From assembly GCA_002441095.1 (NCBI GenBank), contig DJVG01000034.1, positions 61,072 through 125,071 of the forward strand: DNA of 64,000 nt. Direction: 5' to 3'. Position 1 is the first letter of the stretch; every line of letters starts with the position of its first letter. The position numbers were made by a program, and so were the translations under genes. Source of the DNA: Elusimicrobia bacterium UBA6262. Its GTDB lineage: Bacteria > CAYTYR01 > UBA6262. Below, one piece after another: positions 21,997 through 61,572 of this stretch. A model generated the notes under the pieces. That model was not told the origin of the DNA and searched no databases. It was given only the letters and a program-made list of their open reading frames with translations.

Positions 21997-22880
21997 TATC
22001 CTAAATACCTTTTAAGCGCATCCTGCCAGGTAGGCAGTACAGGCAAATTGTGTAATTTCCAGTTAAAATTATCCAATACCGAGTTTCCGGGTCGCGGAGC
22101 CGGCCGGTTTATCTGTTGGGTACTGACCGGCGCTATATTATCTTTGGCTCCGCTTTGTCTTACTATTTCCCTGGCAAAATCAAACCAGGAACAGGACCCG
22201 CTGTTAGTGATATGCCAAATACCATACAAGCCAGTTGATAGTTGATTGTTGATAGTTAATAGCTGCTTGATAGCTTCGGCCAGATCATCTGTATAGGTTG
22301 GAGAACCAAATTGGTCATTGATTACTTTTAGCTCATGTTTATTCTGTATTTGCGATTGGATTGCCGTCACAAAGTTTTGGCCATGCCGGCCAAAGAGCCA
22401 GCTGGAGCGGATAATCATAAACCTGTTGACCAGCCATTGGGTATATAATTCCCCCCAATATTTACTTTTAGCGTAGGTGCCCAGGGGTTCTGGCTGGTCT
22501 ATTTCCAGGTAAGGTTCTTTTTTCTGCCCGTTAAATACATAATCAGTGCTGATGTAAATCAAAGCTGAATCAAACCGCTGGCAGGCTAAGGCTACATTCC
22601 TGGTACCCAGGGAATTGACCTGGTATGCTTGTTCCTGGGAGCTTTCCGCCCCATCTACATTGGTGTAAGCAGCCGCGTGTATTACTAATTCAGGATTAAT
22701 TTTGGTAATAATTTCATAGGTTGCTTTAGCCTCGGTAATATCTATCAGCTGATATTTAGCACTCGGCATTTCTATGGTTGGCTTCCTGTTATCCAACCCA
22801 TAAAGCTCATGTTCTCCTGCCAGTGCCTGCATTAAATCAGTTCCCAACATGCCACTGGCCCCGGTTATCGCGATCCTCAT
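21996..22880 (-). CDS. rfbD: dTDP-4-dehydrorhamnose reductase
   Basis: MRIAITGASGMLG... RmlD-type SDR of 294 aa. Confidence 0.8.
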   Translation of the reverse strand: MRIAITGASGMLGTDLMQALAGEHELYGLDNRKPTIEMPSAKYQLIDITEAKATYEIITKINPELVIHAAAYTNVDGAESSQEQAYQVNSLGTRNVALACQRFDSALIYISTDYVFNGQKKEPYLEIDQPEPLGTYAKSKYWGELYTQWLVNRFMIIRSSWLFGRHGQNFVTAIQSQIQNKHELKVINDQFGSPTYTDDLAEAIKQLLTINNQLSTGLYGIWHITNSGSCSWFDFAREIVRQSGAKDNIAPVSTQQINRPAPRPGNSVLDNFNWKLHNLPVLPTWQDALKRYLG

Positions 22881-23004
22881 AACTACTCCTAAGAGAAAAA
22901 TAAGTCCTATCTTTAAAAGCAGTTTTAAGTTTAAAGTTGAAAGTGTTAAGTTTCGGTAATATTATTGATATAATAACCTTAACTTAAAACTTTACACTTT
23001 TAAC
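22881..23004. repeat. family-D AT-rich palindromic element (AAGTTTAAAGT / ACTTTAAACTT-like arms)
   Basis: aagtttaaagttgaaagtgttaagttt...cttaacttaaaactttacacttttaacttataactt between rfbD and rfbB. Confidence 0.6.
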
Positions 23005-31313: not shown

Positions 31314-32600
31314 CTATTCTTTACTATGGTCTAATAAAAGTATTTTACGGACTTCACCTACGGTATATAATGAACCGGTGACAGTCACCAGGTCTTTTCT
31401 TCCGGCCAGTTTCAGCGCCTGCCTTATAGCTTGTGGGATAGAATTGGCTACTAATACCTGCGCATTGTCCGGCCATAACTTCCTGATTTTTTGCGGATCT
31501 AAAGCCCTATCCGAACCAGGCCGCACCAATATAGCCTGGTCAACCAGTGGAGCTATGATCTTAACCATCCGGCGATAATCCTTATCCTTTAAAACGCCAA
31601 AAACAAGAATAAGTTTGTGCCCGCTGGATTTCCTGTTTTCAAGTTCTCTTACCAGCGAGTTCATACCGGCTGGGTTATGCGCACCATCTAAAAGAACGGT
31701 TCGTGGTTCGTGGTTCGTGGTAAAAACCTTAAAGAGCTCCAGGCGGCCGGGCCAGAAAGCTTTTGCCAAACCCTGCTTGACTGCCTTTTCTGATATTTTG
31801 AAGCCTTGACGCTGTAATTGTTTAATAGCGCCTACAGCACAAGCGGCATTTATTTTTTGATGGGATCCTTTAAGGCTGATACTCCATCCTGCCGGGATCT
31901 TGATAATTTTATCTGCCCTTACCAGCCTGGCGTGTTTCTTCCGGCATTGTTCCCGGAAGACTGCCAACACTTCAGGTTGGGTGGCTGCAGTCACTACGAA
32001 ACTGTTCTTTTTGATGATCGCCGCTTTTTCGCGGGCAATTTTCCTTAAAGTGTTGCCCAGATATTCGGTGTGGTCATAATCCACATTCGTGATCACTGCT
32101 ACCAGTGGGTTCTCTACCACATTGGTAGCATCAAGCCTGCCGCCCATACCTGTTTCAATTACAGCCAGGTCAACTTTTTCCCGTGCAAAATAAATATAAG
32201 CAACCGCGGTAAGCATTTCAAAATAGGTCAGTTTTAGCCGCAGGGAATCACAGACTGCTTTTACTGTGCAGATCAAGCCGGCAAATACGGTCCGGTCAAT
32301 ATCCTGCCGGTTTATCTGTAGGCGTTCAGTCACCTCTGCTAAATGCGGAGAGGTATAAAGTCCTACCCTGTATCCGCCAGCCTGCAGGATACTGGACAGG
32401 AAAGCGCAAACTGAGCCTTTGCCGTTTGTCCCAGCTACGTGTATTACCGGTATCCGGCCTTGGGGATAGTTAAAAACTGCCAGCACTTTTCCTATCCTTT
32501 GCAGGTCAAATTTCACCCCGAGCAAAGCTAAGCTTTCCAGATAGCGGATAGCATCTTTAAAAGAACTAATTTTTTTATTATAACACATCGAACTGCTCAA
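31314..32600 (-). CDS. folC: bifunctional folylpolyglutamate synthase / dihydrofolate synthase
   Basis: VIHVAGTNGKGSV P-loop; Mur-ligase architecture. Confidence 0.85.
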   Translation of the reverse strand: MSSSMCYNKKISSFKDAIRYLESLALLGVKFDLQRIGKVLAVFNYPQGRIPVIHVAGTNGKGSVCAFLSSILQAGGYRVGLYTSPHLAEVTERLQINRQDIDRTVFAGLICTVKAVCDSLRLKLTYFEMLTAVAYIYFAREKVDLAVIETGMGGRLDATNVVENPLVAVITNVDYDHTEYLGNTLRKIAREKAAIIKKNSFVVTAATQPEVLAVFREQCRKKHARLVRADKIIKIPAGWSISLKGSHQKINAACAVGAIKQLQRQGFKISEKAVKQGLAKAFWPGRLELFKVFTTNHEPRTVLLDGAHNPAGMNSLVRELENRKSSGHKLILVFGVLKDKDYRRMVKIIAPLVDQAILVRPGSDRALDPQKIRKLWPDNAQVLVANSIPQAIRQALKLAGRKDLVTVTGSLYTVGEVRKILLLDHSKE

Positions 32601-35921: not shown

Positions 35922-36602
35922 TCAACTGTTTTTAGCTTTGGTAATAAAGTCTTTCATTTTGTCGTAATCTTTGCGCTTGGGCGAACGCTCTATCCCGCTG
36001 GCCACATCAGCAGCAAAAGGTTTTACTTTGTCCATTGCTTCCTGCACATTTTCCGGGGTCAGCCCGCCAGCCAGGAATACCGGTTTTCCCAATTCCTTGG
36101 CTTTCACTGCCAGGTCCCAGTTGAAAATCGCCCCGGTTCCGCCGGCTACATCTTCCACATACGCATCCAGCAAGAAATAATCAGCTATTTCCAGGTATGG
36201 TCTCAGCGCGTCAAGTATTGTTTCATCCTTGACCCTGAAAGCCTTGATTATTTTTATTCCGGGTATTGCCTCTTTTAATTGCCGGCAATATTCTACGGTT
36301 TCATCTCCATGCAGCTGGACCAGTGCCAAATTTAATTTCTTGACCAGCTTAATTATGTTCTTGCTGTCTTCATTGACAAAAACACCGACGCTGGAAACAA
36401 AAGGAGGTATCTCCTTCAGTATCTCTAAAGCATTTTGGGGCGAAATCTTTCTTGGACTATCTTTATAAAAGTTTAATCCAATGAAATCCGCCCCTAAATT
36501 AGCCGCCCAGGTCGCATCCTGCGCACAGGTTATGCCGCAAATTTTAGTTTTTACCAATATACCTTCCCAATGTTTATTTTTAATCTGTGCTGCGCCCGCC
36601 AA
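35922..36602 (-). CDS. trpF: phosphoribosylanthranilate isomerase
   Basis: KICGIT...GADFIGLNFY..SPR. Confidence 0.85.
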   Translation of the reverse strand: MAGAAQIKNKHWEGILVKTKICGITCAQDATWAANLGADFIGLNFYKDSPRKISPQNALEILKEIPPFVSSVGVFVNEDSKNIIKLVKKLNLALVQLHGDETVEYCRQLKEAIPGIKIIKAFRVKDETILDALRPYLEIADYFLLDAYVEDVAGGTGAIFNWDLAVKAKELGKPVFLAGGLTPENVQEAMDKVKPFAADVASGIERSPKRKDYDKMKDFITKAKNS

Positions 36603-36625
36603 CGCATTAGTGGCGGGTAATCGTT

Positions 36626-39991: not shown

Positions 39992-40037
39992 CTTTGATTT
40001 TAACTGCTATCCGCCGACTGCGAACTGCCAACGGCCC

Positions 40038-40193
40038 TTACTTTTCCGCTTCTTCTACCAGCATGACGGGGATGCCGTCCTTAATCGGATATTTCTTGCC
40101 GCATTTCTGGCAGATGATCTTATTATCTTTTTCTACGACATTACCTTTGCAATCAGGGCAAGCCATAATTTCCAGTAAACTTTTTTCAACCAT
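40038..40193 (-). CDS. Trm112/UPF0434-family small zinc-ribbon protein
   Basis: 51-aa ORF MVEKSLLEIMACPDCKGNVVEKDNKIICQKCGKKYPIKDGIPVMLVEEAEK, found by hand translation; too short for the ORF track. The CPxC...CxxC plus IP.ML motif is typical of the family. Confidence 0.55.
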   Translation of the reverse strand: MVEKSLLEIMACPDCKGNVVEKDNKIICQKCGKKYPIKDGIPVMLVEEAEK

Positions 40194-40202
40194 GATTCCC
40201 CC

Positions 40203-42318: not shown

Positions 42319-42671
42319 CTTAACCTCATATTATTTAATTAGTATTTTCCGTGTATCAGGTAACTGTCACTATTTGTTCGCTCCAGTGTCGATTTTTAGC
42401 GTCAAAGGTCTTGCGTCAACTCGGTGCCGAGAAACTCGCCCCTTGGGCTCAGACAATCTCGGCATCCAGCAGCCAAAGATACCCTCGTTGCTTGCAAGCA
42501 TGCTTTGACTAAAATCGACAAGCTCGCTCAAAATAATGACAAGTTCCCTGATCTGTATGGTTGCCGTTATCATCAGAGTAACTGGGGGTGGCGAGGGTTT
42601 GATTTTTGCCAGGGTTATTGATGCTTTTGTCCCGATATAGTTATATCGGGAAGACAGGACCCCAAGTAAAC
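42319..42671 (-). ncRNA. 353-nt trpE 5' leader containing blocks conserved with the polA leader (family F); function unknown
   Basis: Blocks gtatcaggtaactgtcactatttgtt (42353-42378), caaaggtctt (42403-42412) and cgacaagctcgctcaaaataatgacaagttccctgatctgta (42516-42557) recur at 60220-60405. A perfect hairpin cccgatata..tatatcggg sits at 42631-42650. Confidence 0.4.
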
Positions 42672-43813: not shown

Positions 43814-43828
43814 GGCAACCTCAAAGCA

Positions 43829-43902
43829 AGCGTTAAGCGGGTAGCGTTTAGCGTATAGAAAATCTTTTAAAACTATCCGCTATACGCCATACGCTATACG
43901 CC
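43829..43902. repeat. family-B palindromic element (TATACGC / GCGTATA heptad arms)
   Basis: gcgttaagcgggtagcgtttagcgtatag-aaaatcttttaaaa-ctatccgctatacgccatacgctatacgcc. Confidence 0.75.
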
Positions 43903-43905
43903 GAT

Positions 43906-44494: not shown

Positions 44495-45223
44495 TTAACC
44501 TGCTAATTTTACCGCATCTTCCAATTTTAAAGTGTCCGTATATAAGGCCTTGCCGATAACCATTCCCTCTACTCCATACTTTTCAATTTCAATGATCTTT
44601 TCCACATCTTTGATCGTAGAGATCCCGCCAGCAGCAATGACTGCTATCCCGCCTTTTTGGGCCATCGATTTAATACCTTTAATATTCGGCCCTTCCATCA
44701 TTCCGTCACGGCTAATATCGGTATAAAGGATCTCCTTGACCCCGGCTGCTTTCATCTTTTTAGCCAGGTCAGCGGCATTTACTTCGGTATCATCTTTCCA
44801 GCCGCCGATAGATATTTTGCCTTTCTTGGCGTCTATAGCGACAATGATCTTATCACCATATTTTTTCAGGGCCTCATCCAGTAATGGCTGATTGGTAATA
44901 GCGATAGTTCCCAGGATCACTTTACTGGCCCCGGCAGAAATTACCTTATCGATCATTTCCATTTTTCGCATCCCGCCGCCTACCTGGACCGGCATGTTCA
45001 CTTCCTTACAGATCTTCTCGATGATTTCCAGGTTTTGGACCACTCCGGCAAAAGCGCCATCCAAATCTATGATATGCAGCCGTTTTGCCCCTTTAGCCTG
45101 AAACAACTTAGCGATAAATAGCGGGTCCTTGGAATAGATTGTTTCCTGTTCAAGCTTGCCCTGTTCCAACCTGACACACTGGCCGCCGCGCAAGTCTATA
45201 GCCGGAATTATCATCATTTTCAT
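44495..45223 (-). CDS. hisA: ProFAR isomerase
   Basis: MIIPAIDLRGGQCVRL. Confidence 0.9.
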   Translation of the reverse strand: MKMMIIPAIDLRGGQCVRLEQGKLEQETIYSKDPLFIAKLFQAKGAKRLHIIDLDGAFAGVVQNLEIIEKICKEVNMPVQVGGGMRKMEMIDKVISAGASKVILGTIAITNQPLLDEALKKYGDKIIVAIDAKKGKISIGGWKDDTEVNAADLAKKMKAAGVKEILYTDISRDGMMEGPNIKGIKSMAQKGGIAVIAAGGISTIKDVEKIIEIEKYGVEGMVIGKALYTDTLKLEDAVKLAG

Positions 45224-45284
45224 ACTCCTAAAGATTACACAGATTATTAAAAGATCCGCCAGAGGCGGACAGGGATTACACAGA
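45224..45284. repeat. family-K element: two GATTACACAGATTA copies flanking a ccgccagaggcgg hairpin
   Basis: GATTACACAGATTA at 45233-45246 and 45274-45287; the second copy supplies the hisH stop codon. The same 14-mer occurs twice at 31261-31296. Confidence 0.7.
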
Positions 45285-45956
45285 TTACTTACATAATCTC
45301 ACAAAATTACGCAGGATCTGTAAGCCTATTTTTTGGCTCTTCTCCGGGTGGAACTGGCAGGCAAAAAGATTCCCTTTGGCAATTGAAGAACAAAATTCAA
45401 CGCCATAATCCGTAGTCGTAGCGATAATATTTTTATCTTTGGGCCTCACATAATACGAATGCACGAAATATACATAAGCATTATTTGGAATATTTTGTAA
45501 TATTTTTAGATTTTTACTTCCTGCACGCTGTACGCTATACGCTATACGCTGATTTATTTGATTCCACCCCATGTGGGGGATCTTTAAACCTGTCACGGGT
45601 TGCGGGTCGCGAGTCGCGAGTTTAGAGAAATTGAAGCGGGGGACAGTGCCTTTAACAATACCAAGGCCTTTACAGCCGCCGCCTTCTTCACTGGTCTCAA
45701 ACAGCAGTTGCAATCCCAGGCAGATACCCAGAAAAGGCTTATCCGCAGCAATAGTTTTCTTGATACTGCTGATCACTTTGGCCTTTTGCAGGGCTTGCAT
45801 GGCATCCGGCATCGCTCCTACGCCAGGCAGGACCACGCCAGAAGCTTTATTTATTATATCGGGGCTGGCTGTGATCTTAACTTCGGCCCCCAAACTTTCC
45901 AGGGCTTTGGCGACACTGCGCAGATTCCCCATCCCGTAATCGATTATGGCAATCAT
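45285..45956 (-). CDS. hisH: imidazole glycerol phosphate synthase glutaminase subunit
   Basis: GMGNLRSV...GICLGLQLLF...HMGWNQ...FVHSYY. 223 aa against about 196 typical, with two repeat-derived in-frame segments. Confidence 0.85.
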   Translation of the reverse strand: MIAIIDYGMGNLRSVAKALESLGAEVKITASPDIINKASGVVLPGVGAMPDAMQALQKAKVISSIKKTIAADKPFLGICLGLQLLFETSEEGGGCKGLGIVKGTVPRFNFSKLATRDPQPVTGLKIPHMGWNQINQRIAYSVQRAGSKNLKILQNIPNNAYVYFVHSYYVRPKDKNIIATTTDYGVEFCSSIAKGNLFACQFHPEKSQKIGLQILRNFVRLCK

Positions 45957-46065
45957 TGCTTATTCCTTAGCTGTAAAGCTGTAGAAGTTCTGCCTCGAAG
46001 TCCGGCAAGATGTAAAGATATAGAGAGGCATGCTTCTTTACAGCTGTACATCTCTACAGCTGCTC
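45957..46065. repeat. family-C palindromic element
   Basis: gctgtaaagctgtagaagtt...cttctttacagctgtacatctctacagctg. Confidence 0.65.
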
Positions 46066-46668
46066 TTAGATTCTACCTTTTGTAGACGGTATTCCTTTAA
46101 TTCTCGGGTCTACTTTGGTGGCCGTATCCAGCGCCCGGGCCAGGGCCTTGAACAGCGCTTCCAAAATATGGTGCAGGTCCTCGCCGGCTAAAATATCAAT
46201 ATGGGCATTGATACCGGCATGCTGGCAGAACGAACGCAAAAAATGCTTGGCATCTTCAAAACTGTATCCTTTTTTATCGCGCACAGGCAAGGTAACATTC
46301 TTATCTACGGTAATATAGAGTGACGGGCGTCCGCTGACATCCATGGTGATCCTGGCTAAAGCTTCATCCATCGGCACTCCTGCCCCGGCAAACCGCTTGA
46401 TGCCTTTTTTATCTCCCAGGGCCCGGTCAAAGGCCTGGCCCAGGCAAATCCCCACGTCTTCATTGGTGTGATGTATATCCACATCCAGGTCTCCTTTGGC
46501 TTTGATCTCCAGGTCAAACAAACCATGTTTGGCAAATAAGCCCAGCATATGATCCAGGAAAGCGATGCCGGTTTTAATATTATAATCCCCACGGCCATCA
46601 ATATTCAGGTTAAGCTGGATCTTGGTTTCCCTGGTATCGCGCTTTATTGCCGCTGTGCGTTTAATCAT
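46066..46668 (-). CDS. hisB: imidazoleglycerol-phosphate dehydratase
   Basis: ...DxHHxxE motifs (VDIHHTNED). Confidence 0.85.
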   Translation of the reverse strand: MIKRTAAIKRDTRETKIQLNLNIDGRGDYNIKTGIAFLDHMLGLFAKHGLFDLEIKAKGDLDVDIHHTNEDVGICLGQAFDRALGDKKGIKRFAGAGVPMDEALARITMDVSGRPSLYITVDKNVTLPVRDKKGYSFEDAKHFLRSFCQHAGINAHIDILAGEDLHHILEALFKALARALDTATKVDPRIKGIPSTKGRI

Positions 46669-50469: not shown

Positions 50470-51348
50470 TTAGGATTTGTTCTTTGCTATTATTATTCTT
50501 TCAATTCCAGCATAATCTTTTTTAATCTCAATATTACTGAAAAGCTGCTCTTTTTCCAATAATTGCTTTATTTTCCCGGCTTGCCCATACCCTATCTCAA
50601 ACGCCAGTAAGCCTCCCGGCTGCAGGTAGTACCTGGCCTGGGGAATGATCTTGCGATAAAAATCCAGGCCGTCCTTCCCGCCATAAAGAGCGGCTTTTGG
50701 TTCATATCCGACTTCTGGCTGTAACGCAGCAAAATCTTTCTCAGTGACATACGGCGGATTAGACACGATAAAATCGAACTTTTCCTTCAGCCTGGCAAAC
50801 AAACTGCCCCTGATCAGTTTAACCTGTGTTTCTACCCGGTGTTTCTTAATATTTTTCCTGGCGATTCTGAGCGCTTTTGCCGAGGTATCTGTCCCTAGTA
50901 TGCTGGCCTGGTTCAAATTTTTAGCCAGGGCCACGACAATCGCCCCGCTCCCCACCCCAATCTCCAATATCTTTAGTTTACCAGCGACTAGCGACCAGCG
51001 ACTAGCGACTGCTTTTATTATTTCTTCTACCAGCAGCTCCGTCTCCGGCCGGGGAATGAGTACTCCTTTATTAATGAACAGGTCCAAGCCATAGAATTGC
51101 GCATTCTTTAAAATATAGCTAGCTGGTATCCTCTGGCGACGCAATACAATATATTTTTTGAAACACGTTAAGTCTTTTTTGGCTATTTCTTTTTCTTTTT
51201 TCAGGAACAGGTCCAGTTTTTTCATTCTCAGTGCCTGGGAAAGCAGCAACTGCGCTTCCAAAGCCGGCTCAGGCACCCTGGCTTGGGTTAATTGTTCAAT
51301 CCCCCATTCTAATAATGTGCTAATCCGAGAGCCATTTATAATACTCAT
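50470..51348 (-). CDS. prmC: peptide chain release factor N5-glutamine methyltransferase
   Basis: LIPRPETE...[11 protein letters not shown]...IVSNPPYV. Confidence 0.85.
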
Positions 51349-52418: not shown

Positions 52419-52537
52419 TTGAAACCTTTCTGTTGCGAATTACGCGAATTAAAAGACGCGAATTACACGAATGTTCTTATTCGAGGTATTCGCTGTCCTG
52501 CCTACCGGCAGGCAGGCATTCGAGTTATTCGTATTAT

Positions 52538-53473: not shown

Positions 53474-53525
53474 TATTTACTCCTCTACCCAAGTACCAAT
53501 ATCGGTTCCAGGGTATGTAATTAAA

Positions 53526-53556
53526 CAACAAGGACAGAGTTCATCTGTCCTTGTTG
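53526..53556 (-). terminator. putative rho-independent terminator downstream of rpmE
   Basis: Perfect 13-bp stem caacaaggacaga / tctgtccttgttg with loop gttca. On the minus strand it is followed by TTTAATT. Confidence 0.4.
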
Positions 53557-53576
53557 TTGGTACATATATGGATTAG

Positions 53577-53894
53577 CTAAGAGTTCTGTTTTTCGGTCTC
53601 AGCAGCCGGCATTTCTTTTTTTACTTTTTTAATGCTGGCTTTTTCTTTGGCCGCGGCTTTCGCCTTTTTCCCTTTTGCTCTCTTTACTTCGCCGGTCTTC
53701 TTAGCCATTTTCTTCTGGAATCTTTCCACCATGCCGGCGGTGTCTACCAGCTTCTGCTTGCCGGTATAAAACGGATGGCAAGCGGAACAGATTTCTACGT
53801 GAATGTTTTGCTTGGTTGACCGTGTCGGGTAGGTGGCTCCGCAGGCGCACTTGATCACAGTCTCCTTATACTCTGGATGTATTCCCTCTTTCAT
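53577..53894 (-). CDS. rpmE: 50S ribosomal protein L31 with a Lys-rich C-terminal extension
   Basis: MKEGIHPEY...CxC...[13 protein letters not shown]. Confidence 0.85.
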
Positions 53895-53915
53895 GAACGT
53901 CTTCCTCCTCTTTTT

Positions 53916-53993
53916 AGCGGGTAGCGTTTAGCGGGTAGCGTATAGAAAATCAATATTCTTTTCCTATACGCTATACGCCATACGCTATACGCT
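53916..53993. repeat. family-B palindromic element
   Basis: gcgggtagcgtttagcgggtagcgtatag-aaaatcaatattctttt-cctatacgctatacgccatacgctatacgc. Confidence 0.75.
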
Positions 53994-54001
53994 GTTTTAT
54001 T

Positions 54002-55276
54002 TTATTTACCATTAAACTCCATCGATTTCAGGAATTCTTTATTGGACTTGGTTTTACGCGTCTTCTCCGAGACCAGCTCCATTGCTTCCACAACATTGAG
54101 CGGGCTCAGCACTTTACGCAGGATCCAGACCTTGTTCAATTCATCTTCGCTGAGCAGTAATTCCTCGCGCCGCGTACCAGATTTATTAATGTCCAGGGCC
54201 GGGAACACGCGCTTGTCCACCAACCGGCGATCCAGGATCATTTCCATATTGCCGGTACCCTTAAACTCTTCAAAAATGACTTCATCCATCCGGGAGCCGG
54301 TTTCTACCAGCGCCGTGGCCATGATAGTCAGGCTGCCACCCTCTTCAATATTACGAGCGGCGCCAAAAAACCGCTTGGGCCGTTGCAAAGCATTGGAATC
54401 CACACCGCCGCTGAGTACTTTACCGCTGGGTGGTACCGTGGCATTATAGGCCCGGGCCAGCCTGGTTATACTATCTAATAATATTACCACATCCTTCTTC
54501 TGTTCGACAAGTCTTTTCGCCTTCTCAATGACCATTTCCGCTACCTGGATATGCCGTTCGCTCGGTTCGTCAAACGTAGAAGATATTACTTCTCCTTTTA
54601 CGGACCGCTGCATATCTGTCACTTCTTCCGGCCGCTCATCGATCAACAGTACGATCAGCGCTACTTCCGGATGATTGGTGCTGATAGCATTGGCTAGCTT
54701 CTGCAGCAGGATGGTCTTTCCGGCACGGGGCGGCGAGACGATCAATCCTCTTTGCCCTTTGCCGATCGGGGTAAACATATCCATGATGCGCATAGATATC
54801 TCTTCCTGCTTGGTTTCCAGTGTGAGCTTCTGCTGCGGATAGAGCGGGGTCAGGTTGTCAAATAATATTCTTTTCTTAATATCATCAGGATTAGCGCTAT
54901 TGACGGCTTCGATCTTTAAGAGAGCAAAATATCGCTCTCCTTCCTTGGGCGGGCGCACCTGGCCGCTGATAGTATCGCCTTTGCGCAGGTCAAACCTGCG
55001 GATCTGGCTGGGAGAGACATAGATATCATCCGGCCCAGACAGGTAGTTATACTGGGGAGAACGTAAAAAACCGAAGCCATCCGGCAATATCTCCAGGGTG
55101 CCTTCGTCAAAAACCAGGCCGTTTTTCTCGGTCTGCGCCTGCAGGATCTTGAAGATGATCTCCTGCTTTTTCAACCCGCTGACTGATTCCAGCTTCAATT
55201 CTTTGGCTATGTCCGTCAGATCGGATATAGTCTTCTTGCCTAAGGCAGCCATATCTAAAGCGGCGCCATTTTCCAT
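54002..55276 (-). CDS. rho: transcription termination factor Rho
   Basis: N-terminal RNA-binding domain plus Walker A PPRAGKT. Confidence 0.9.
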
Positions 55277-56039: not shown

Positions 56040-56056
56040 GGCAAACCTTTCCCGGC

Positions 56057-56136
56057 GGCGTAAAGCGTATGGCGTATAGCGGATAGTAAGAAGAAATTGT
56101 TTTCTATACGCTACCCGCTAAACGCTATCCGCTATC
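56057..56136. repeat. family-B palindromic element
   Basis: gcgtaaagcgtatggcgtatagcggatag-taagaagaaattgttttc-tatacgctacccgctaaacgctatccgc. Confidence 0.75.
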
Positions 56137-56137
56137 T

Positions 56138-60192: not shown

Positions 60193-60618
60193 GGTAAAAA
60201 CCTCATTGTCTGGCTCTGCGTATCAGTGAACTGTCACTATTTGTTTCCGCCAAAGAGACTGGCGGACTCCCTCTGGTCGCGCTTGCCAAAGGTCTTTAAA
60301 CTCAATAATTGCTTCAGCCGCAGGCTGATCCGCCGATCTTTTTGGAGGATTTGGGCTGAAACACGACAAGCTCGCTCAAAATAATGACCAGTTCCCTGAT
60401 CTATACAGTGTATAAGAGGCGAGCGCGGCCGCTGATGTCGTGTAGAAAACCCTGCCTGCCGGCAGGCAGGGTTCGAGAGTCTTGAGTTGGCATGGACTCT
60501 TCATCCCCGTACTTTGGGGAACTCAAGCGAGAATTGAGTGCGTTTTCCTCGCAGGGGAAAACGACACGCTTTTCGGAACGACGCAGCGTGACAGCGAGCC
60601 CTATTATATCTTAATAAA
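60193..60618 (-). ncRNA. 426-nt polA leader / suhB trailer with blocks conserved with the trpE leader, plus several perfect hairpins; function unknown
   Basis: Blocks at 60220-60245, 60286-60296 and 60364-60405 match the trpE leader. Hairpins: ccgccaaagagactggcgg, ccctgcctgccggcaggcaggg, cgttttcctcgcaggggaaaacg. Confidence 0.4.
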
Positions 60619-61431: not shown

Positions 61432-61572
61432 ATTATGTCTCCTAAAAACAGTTTCGGGTTACGAGTTCCAGGTTGCGAGTTAAGGCTATACAACTATTGC
61501 TATTATAAAAATTATCAAAACTCGAAACGGGAAACCCGCAGACTGCCGAAGGCAGACAACTCGCAACTGTAT
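61432..61572. repeat. family-A palindromic element (long copy)
   Basis: cagtttcgggttacgagttccaggttgcgagtt ... aactcgaaacgggaaacccgcagactgccgaaggcagacaactcgcaactg. Confidence 0.7.

Follow-up and report, generated by a model that had tools for sequence, protein, structure and literature searches.

Cyanobacterial genomes reportedly contain several families of heptamer arrays each, the short tandemly repeated repetitive (STRR) sequences, with small dispersed repeats (SDR) of 21–27 nucleotides (nt) nested in them, and Rickettsia palindromic elements (RPE), 100–150 bp long and described from one genus, are said to be selfish in-frame inserts in housekeeping genes that add surface peptide segments while the proteins stay functional. 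In Geobacter metallireducens, members of the GGGACCG family consist of four tandem 7-nt units and occupy dozens of loci (Aklujkar et al. 2009, PMC2700814). The TAACTGA repeats of Beggiatoaceae, cyanobacteria and Bacteroidetes form sets of 2–6 heptamers that are mostly intergenic and lie within operons; ten sets lie inside open reading frames (ORFs), only in the stop-free orientation, and the peptide encoded by one of these, LSVINYQLS, falls in a variable surface loop of an RNA polymerase beta-prime-like protein (MacGregor 2015, PMC4679880). A cold-shock-type protein has been proposed as the binder of the Beggiatoaceae repeats (PMC4679880). Repetitive extragenic palindromic (REP) sequences and REPINs are short, dispersed, hairpin-forming intergenic repeats in operons that are also targets of other insertions; REPINs are extragenic and depend on the RAYT transposase, and REPs are not tandem heptamers (PMC3116915). 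Here we describe two tandem heptamer arrays inside hisH, the gene for the glutamine amidotransferase subunit of imidazole glycerol phosphate synthase, in a 64,000-nt stretch of DNA (the window) from Elusimicrobia bacterium UBA6262 (GCA_002441095.1, contig DJVG01000034.1, positions 61,072–125,071). Both arrays are in frame and free of stop codons, and both belong to repeat families that occupy the spacers of the window.

In-frame heptamer arrays in hisH

The hisH gene occupies positions 45285–45956 on the minus strand, the strand shared by all genes of the window, and encodes a protein of 223 amino acids (aa). The product matches the Pfam GATase family (7.5e-25) and has more than 8000 homologues, the near ones including proteins labeled Elusimicrobia bacterium and the more distant ones Omnitrophota. 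It retains the PGVG strand and an intact catalytic triad of Cys79, His203 and Glu205, all invariant in the alignment, and the gene lies in an intact his operon, with hisB (46066–46668) and hisA (44495–45223) on either side. The GATase fold, Cys-His-Glu triad and his operon context place it in the HisH class. In Foldseek comparisons, an AlphaFold2 model built on 120 homologues (mean predicted local distance difference test score, pLDDT, 88.3) matched solved HisH chains with template modeling (TM) scores of 0.84–0.91 when normalized to the target and 0.76–0.81 when normalized to the query (best E 4.5e-20, TM 0.91); the lower query-normalized values fit the presence of ~25 extra, unmatched residues in the window protein. 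The window sequence is 100% identical in two other assemblies over 1.0–1.6 kb.

Each array shows four heptamer units on the sense (minus) strand. At site 1 (45595–45622), AACTCGC GACTCGC GACCCGC AACCCGT reads in frame as KLATRDPQPV, within codons 112–121 and inside KLATRDPQPVTG (aa 112–123). At site 2 (45521–45551), CAGCGTA TAGCGTA TAGCGTA CAGCGTG CAG reads as QRIAYSVQRAG (aa 136–146). The site 2 unit TAGCGTA would give an in-frame TAG in two of the four units, and exactly those two read CAG. Tandem Repeats Finder (TRF) called period 7 at both sites, with 3.7 and 2.9 copies. A preliminary description of this stretch, made from the sequence alone, had reported the hisH ORF, both sites and the stop codon correctly; it had also proposed that the frame is unbroken, which the conserved protein features bear out, and that the segments lie in loops where orthologues are shorter. 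The loop assignment is supported in several ways. The 13- and 14-residue gaps of T. thermophilus HisH (1ka9_H) coincide exactly with the two segments, the HisH proteins of E. coli (196 aa) and T. maritima (201 aa) have neither segment, and residues 111–128 and 137–147 are the only parts of the model that are both of low confidence and without secondary structure (pLDDT 46–55 in the inserts). The two loops flank the PHMGWN strand, site 1 lying just before and site 2 just after. The arrays add 10–14 low-complexity residues, for which disorder is predicted.

That these segments are members of intergenic repeat families, as had been claimed, is evident from their numbers. The TATACGC-type dimer TATACGCTATACGC, allowing at most two mismatches, has 18 matches in the window versus 0.24 expected, and GTTGCGAGTTGCGAG, representing GTTGCGAG-type dimers and allowing at most three mismatches, has 20 versus 0.95 expected. 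The best match to site 2 is the 5′ arm of a GCGTATA/TATACGC intergenic hairpin (53961–54006, minus strand), which is 87% identical over 46 nt, flanks included (E 1e-10). With head-to-tail 7-nt units at many, mainly non-coding loci and stop-free copies in ORFs, these repeats are tandem heptanucleotide arrays.

To gauge chance occurrence in coding DNA, 28-nt stretches of the 58 window genes were scanned, lag by lag, for self-matches at 17 or more of 21 positions and compared with 50 codon shuffles. Lag 7 yielded five arrays, versus 0.0 in the shuffles, and under the identical criterion lags 4–6, 8–12 and 14 yielded zero in these 58 genes. The hisH arrays are not a product of chance and are specific to period 7. 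By one criterion, 10 arrays are present in 6.3 kb of non-coding DNA versus 5 in 57.7 kb of coding DNA. Although the preliminary description had singled out hisH, it holds only two of the five coding arrays. The others, all on the minus strand and each in a segment that is a gap in a solved homologue, are an ATCAACT-family array in RmlD (22233–22262; LLTINNQLST, 6-residue gap), an ACCACGA array in FolC (31698–31721; TTNHEPRT, 5-residue gap) and an AGTCGCT-family array in PrmC (50980–51010; 11 encoded residues, 5-residue gap). Arrays of this kind are likewise found in PrmC and hisH of relatives and in hisH of other phyla.

In the spacers, most arrays come as inverted pairs. From ~22.9 kb on, about half of the spacers of at least 25 nt carry arrays; 14 of 34 reach 14/18 self-matches at lag 7, and three attain this level at lag 8 only. 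Typically, the stop codon is followed by about four units, then by an A/T-rich loop, the reverse complement of about four units and finally the ribosome-binding site of the next gene, and such pairs fold as long hairpins (z −2.7 to −8.5 versus shuffles). Since the spacer pairs fold in this way while RNA of the hisH segment folds no better than its shuffles (z −0.29), the hisH copies are single arms of inverted-pair hairpins and not whole elements. The earlier suggestion that repeat elements reside within the gene is therefore right as to the families, but what resides there are single, four-unit arms, and for site 1 slippage in place is possible. We considered whether the two hisH arrays could pair mutually or with arms nearby and rejected this, as their units are not complementary. 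Rfam gave no match anywhere in the window.

The spacer between hisH and hisA (45224–45284, minus strand) contains TAATCTGTGTAATC twice, on either side of a small GC hairpin (45255–45269), and the first copy overlaps the hisH stop. The TAA (45285–45287) forms the final three bases of a GATTACACAGATTA copy at 45274–45287, so a repeat copy does end in the stop codon, as had been noted; however, spacer repeats in this genome generally begin at or on the upstream stop codon, which makes the overlap an ordinary one without special meaning.

Two further features of the spacers can be recorded. Array-bearing spacers span positions 22881–61572, with none in positions 1–22000 and a few with 8- or 11-nt units. 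Many 5′ arms of spacer hairpins have TAG or TAA in each unit (window 43814–43905, 53910–54001 and 56040–56137; also the hisB-hisH spacers of the relatives L085, L088 and L092 described below), such that three consecutive units would stop every reading frame directly behind the stop codon of the gene.

Array turnover among relatives and occurrence across phyla

Close relatives were retrieved through exact-protein look-ups, and hisH DNA from ten syntenic relatives (L083, L085 and L087–L094) was aligned codon by codon with that of the window, giving 11 genes. Close HisH homologues (70–84% protein identity) are 207–243 aa long, and their differences are concentrated at sites 1 and 2. Rather than the window's inserts, whose presence in relatives would have refuted the preliminary description, the relatives have other heptamer families, or nothing, at both sites. 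At site 1, ACTCGCG in the window corresponds to ACCCGCG in L083, ACTAGCG/ACCAGCG in L085, L089 and L093, ACTATCA/ACAATCA in L092 and L090, ACGAACG in L087 and L088, and no array in L091 and L094. At site 2, TAGCGTA in the window corresponds to GGACGGC in L085 and L092, GCAGATG in L087, AAATCAA in L088, AGTCGCY in L093 and CAGATAC in L094; L090 has a complete inverted pair (TGCTGAA...GCATYCA), L089 a short remnant and L091 no clear array.

These families do not track the gene tree, a neighbor-joining tree of the hisH core plus hisB (1131 nt, 69–90% identity). L089, L091 and L092 are ~88–90% identical, yet they have three different site 1 states. ACTAGCG at site 1 is found in two separate clades, and for two site 1 families and two site 2 families all four combinations occur. 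In the relatives, PrmC shows the same turnover at its own site, and the hisB-hisH spacer is empty in four of them and has different families in the rest.

In the window, the hisB-hisH spacer (45957–46065, minus strand) is a hairpin of inverted short-period (8-nt) arrays with a nested hairpin. We observed that this 109-nt hairpin is 98–100% identical between the window and L090 (4706–4814), versus ~85% for the flanking coding DNA, and that in relatives closer to L090 this spacer is empty or holds another family. The better conservation of this spacer than of the genes suggests recent spread, recombination or constraint.

Length changes at the arrays come in discrete steps. Among the 20 closest homologues, site 1 is 10, 17 or 26 aa long, with 6–7 aa in the shortest variants. 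Between 10 and 17 aa the difference is 21 nt, or three heptamers, which is the sole slippage step that keeps the frame; one relative (P0002) differs from the window sequence by the absence of exactly ATRDPQP. Between 17 and 26 aa the difference is 27 nt, supplied by a GC-rich hairpin, CCTGCCCGCCAACG(C/T)TTGCCGGGAGGG, that sits inside the array. This hairpin lies in different arrays and in different reading frames in L083 and L090 (RLPANACREGF versus NACPPTFAGREL, respectively), which argues that the two insertions were independent. A related hairpin is present in opposite orientation at site 2 of L085, and another lies inside the PrmC array of L088; none is nested in the window's own hisH arrays. 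Hairpins within heptamer arrays are therefore seen in these four relatives and also in window spacers, some of whose arrays enclose small GC-rich hairpins such as CCTGCCTGCCGGTAGGCAGG (52497–52516 and 45255–45269).

Separately, we noted GC-rich hairpins (CCTGCCTGCCGGyAGGCAGG, TCCGCCAGAGGCGGA and CTGCCTTCGGCAG) in or beside spacer arrays at 52497–52516, 60451–60470, 45255–45269 and 61432–61572, which resemble the 27-nt hairpins in the hisH and PrmC arrays of relatives. A hairpin of the form CCCGCC-N11-GGCGGG is conserved in the trpB-trpF spacer of three genomes (window 36591–36617, L083 19899–19925 and L085 15467–15493) and shows sequence relatedness to the 27-nt element inside hisH of L085.

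All length differences between relatives are multiples of 3. We looked for array polymorphism within 90% identity clusters, but their members vary in length only through N-terminal (start-site) truncations, with no variation in array length. Together with the identity of the two other assemblies, this indicates that the hisH arrays are not phase-variable on short time scales. Phase-variable contingency repeats (simple sequence repeats, SSR) were accordingly rejected: close isolates show no copy-number variation, the genes are housekeeping genes and the differences keep the frame. Translational bypassing or removal of the insert was also dismissed as unnecessary, since every in-gene array and nested hairpin that we saw keeps the frame and lacks a stop.

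Similar arrays are found well beyond these relatives. Among the 120 best HisH homologues, 7-aa periodic peptides (TPNSELRTPN, RSTVYGLRSTV, GKWKVESGKWKK and NIKNTNQKPNI) occur in the same two loops of many lineages, in proteins 53–66% identical to the window HisH. We also assembled a cross-phylum sample of 1.15 Mb of hisH loci (L001–L080) from many phyla by scanning a genome collection for HisH, which returned orthologues of at most 56% identity and no close relative. These loci contain 32 period-7 arrays, versus 2, 6 and 6 arrays of periods 6, 8 and 9, and several of the period-7 arrays are paired in inverted orientation. Two Omnitrophota metagenome-assembled genomes (MAGs; L041 and L055) and one Deltaproteobacteria MAG (L051) have arrays within hisH itself. 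The phenomenon of period-7 arrays thus extends beyond what the literature describes.

Two arrangements of complementary arrays around hisH sequences were also noted. In L093, alone among the relatives, site 1 and site 2 (2309–2336 and 2373–2409) are reverse complements that could pair around the PHMGWN-coding segment, possibly by chance. In a Nitrospirae MAG (L025), complementary arrays (116–151 and 927–966) flank the entire hisH gene.

Origin and function of the arrays

If the hisH arrays are single arms of hairpin families, were they copied into the gene or did they grow in place? Site 1 of L092 and the RmlD array of the window have 26 identical nt in common, including the alternation of unit variants. 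A window spacer, PrmC and site 1 of hisH in three relatives all show the alternating ACTAGCG/ACCAGCG pattern, and L085 has GGACGGC in both hisH site 2 and PrmC. At least site 2 appears, from its extended match, to have been copied from the intergenic arm or from the same source. We think that both processes probably act, seeding by or conversion from other arrays being followed by slippage in 21-nt quanta. Under this scenario, a genome-wide dispersal process would yield arrays, and the survivors would be those that pass a filter: a length that is a multiple of 3, no in-frame stop and a permissive surface loop. A resident array would then turn over rapidly, contracting or expanding by three units (21 nt), could be replaced by or converted to other heptamer families, and would attract 27-nt GC-rich hairpin mini-elements. 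Arrays that persist in hisH in this way are likely tolerated passengers rather than adaptations. The hypervariable peptides, the 7-aa periodicity dictated by the DNA, the predicted disorder and the absence of arrays from some close relatives all make a role at the protein level, or one as a sequence-specific cis element, less likely.

Several points weigh against this scenario. Site 1 is exactly 33 nt long in four families (ACTCGCG, ACTAGCG, ACTATCA and ACGAACG), with A-C at the same phase in all units, and this constancy of length and phase is more in keeping with change in place, through contraction, mutation and re-expansion, than with insertions that recurred independently. Matches of site 1 to intergenic arms are weak (16–27 nt, E 0.06–0.2). 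Two relatives have compact, array-free spacers in the stretch examined, but they keep arrays in hisH and prmC. No candidate for a transposase or other mobilizing factor was found, and a search with the exact 27-nt hairpin gave a single metagenome-collection contig, from the same locus as L090, with no evidence of wide dispersal. Neutrality is judged from variability and from disorder that is itself predicted, and is to that extent presumptive. The arrays are presumably translated, given their frame and avoidance of stops. Finally, site 1 lies four residues before the PHMGWN strand, which bears the Trp that contacts HisF in T. maritima, and an effect on the HisH-HisF interface is conceivable.

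The constancy of site 1, its weak matches to intergenic arms and the arrays kept in genes next to array-free spacers also speak for a purely local origin. On this reading a short proto-repeat in loop-coding DNA would have expanded by replication slippage, repeated contraction, point mutation and renewed expansion (of which only ±21-nt steps survive in a gene) would have changed all units together, and the likeness to intergenic families would reflect shared mutational or compositional bias. The exact 7-aa (21-nt) difference that separates P0002 and L091/P0012 from array-bearing relatives fits such a history as well. We nevertheless regard local origin alone as unlikely, since it does not explain why site 2 and an intergenic arm correspond over 46 nt that include non-repeat flanks, why 26-nt strings with the same unit alternation are common to different genes in different genomes, why a few families recur at many loci per genome and in two genes of one (as in L085), or why family distribution conflicts with the gene tree. 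A bolder version of dispersal is that the arrays and nested 27-nt hairpins form one actively dispersing system across this uncultured clade, and perhaps several phyla, in which a trans-acting factor copies arms to fixed "landing" sites (spacers and permissive loops), replacing residents. Hinted at by the incongruence of families with the gene tree, the shared 26-nt strings and the spacer that is far more similar than its flanks, this version is a tentative proposal that we would not favor at present. If true, many housekeeping enzymes would contain rapidly evolving, in-frame peptide cassettes.

With regard to function, the arrays could instead be a selected RNA or DNA signal in cis, either bound by a heptamer-binding factor, such as a cold-shock-type protein, or acting as a translational pause, that tunes expression or co-translational assembly with HisF. 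Arrays have persisted at both sites over a deep clade, hisH genes of other phyla also contain arrays, the near-identity of the hisB-hisH spacer hints at constraint or recent spread, and regulatory roles have been proposed for the Geobacter and Beggiatoaceae arrays (PMC2700814, PMC4679880). However, arrays are missing in close relatives (L091, P0002 and P0012/13, and L094 at site 1), and the unit sequence is unconserved at each site, so no sequence-specific binding site is kept; with the hisH segment lacking RNA structure beyond chance and Rfam silent, we consider such a signal quite improbable. True domestication, which the preliminary description had raised, is more improbable still. It would hold that the added loops modify, for example, the HisF interface or allostery, and it could draw on the position of the inserts on both sides of the interface-Trp strand and on the presence of some insert at both sites in nearly all close relatives. 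Yet the insert peptides are wholly different between relatives that are 80–90% identical elsewhere, they are modeled with low confidence and no secondary structure, the heptamer dictates the amino acids and not vice versa, unrelated enzymes carry the same kind of insert, and L091, P0002 and P0012/13 do without it. As for an assembly or sequencing artefact or a pseudogene, metagenome assembly can garble short repeats, but the agreement of the two other assemblies and the arrays at the same sites in many independent assemblies make an artefact scarcely credible, and the intact ORF, with all its catalytic residues within an intact his operon, says the same of a pseudogene.

Other features of the window and relation to described systems

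Some features of the window lie apart from the heptamer arrays. An element resembling a miniature inverted-repeat transposable element (MITE) is present in two minus-strand copies (~42353–42553 and ~60220–60403) that have a common 42-nt 5′ end (AGATCAGGGAACTnGTCATTATTTTGAGCGAGCTTGTCG) and a common 27-nt 3′ end (AACAAATAGTGACAGTTnnCTGATAC); each end approximates an inverted repeat of the other, and the interiors diverge. The "spacers" at 39992–40202 and 53474–54001 contain small genes that fall under the 110-aa ORF filter, for a ~51-aa Trm112-like zinc-ribbon protein and for ribosomal protein L31, the latter with a long lysine-rich C-terminal tail.

The arrays indicate that non-coding repeat families can lengthen the loops of essential enzymes in uncultured bacteria. 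Such low-complexity inserts inflate apparent protein divergence and can mislead both alignment and structure prediction. In the 11 syntenic orthologues, arrays have been gained, lost and replaced at the same two codon positions, with steps of 21 nt and nested insertions of 27 nt, which makes for a good natural experiment on heptamers under frame constraint. In our literature search, we did not find descriptions of turnover at orthologous sites, of 21/27-nt quantization or of frame-shifted hairpin insertions.

How do these arrays compare with the systems described at the outset? RPE resemble the hisH inserts in being in frame and in adding a surface segment to a protein whose sequence features remain intact, but the inserts here are non-folding single arms of 28–33 nt, with no 100–150-bp palindrome. 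The spacer repeats of the window, like REPINs, are short, dispersed, hairpin-forming and located within operons; unlike REPINs, they are built of tandem heptamers and have copies in genes, and no RAYT gene was seen. The TAACTGA repeats differ in having one dominant unit, located just upstream of start codons, and no inverted pairs, whereas the window has inverted pairs and several families. The unit families also differ from those described, as no tandem doublet of TAACTGA, GGGACCG, CCCCAGT, TTGGTCA, CAACAGT or GGGAATC is present in the window. In architecture, the ~27-nt hairpins within heptamer arrays (in hisH of L083, L090 and L085, in PrmC of L088 and in window spacers) resemble the SDR of the Nostoc type, although cyanobacteria are another phylum and the window's hisH arrays have no nested hairpin. 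The Geobacter family shares the four-unit heptamer array, two of which are held here by one gene; it differs in that many families coexist here, most intergenic copies are inverted-pair hairpins, turnover at orthologous sites is documented and the host belongs to another lineage, which is uncultured. Genes with internal heptamer arrays are already documented in Geobacter, Beggiatoaceae and cyanobacteria, and the arrays in hisH are of this known kind, in different unit families.

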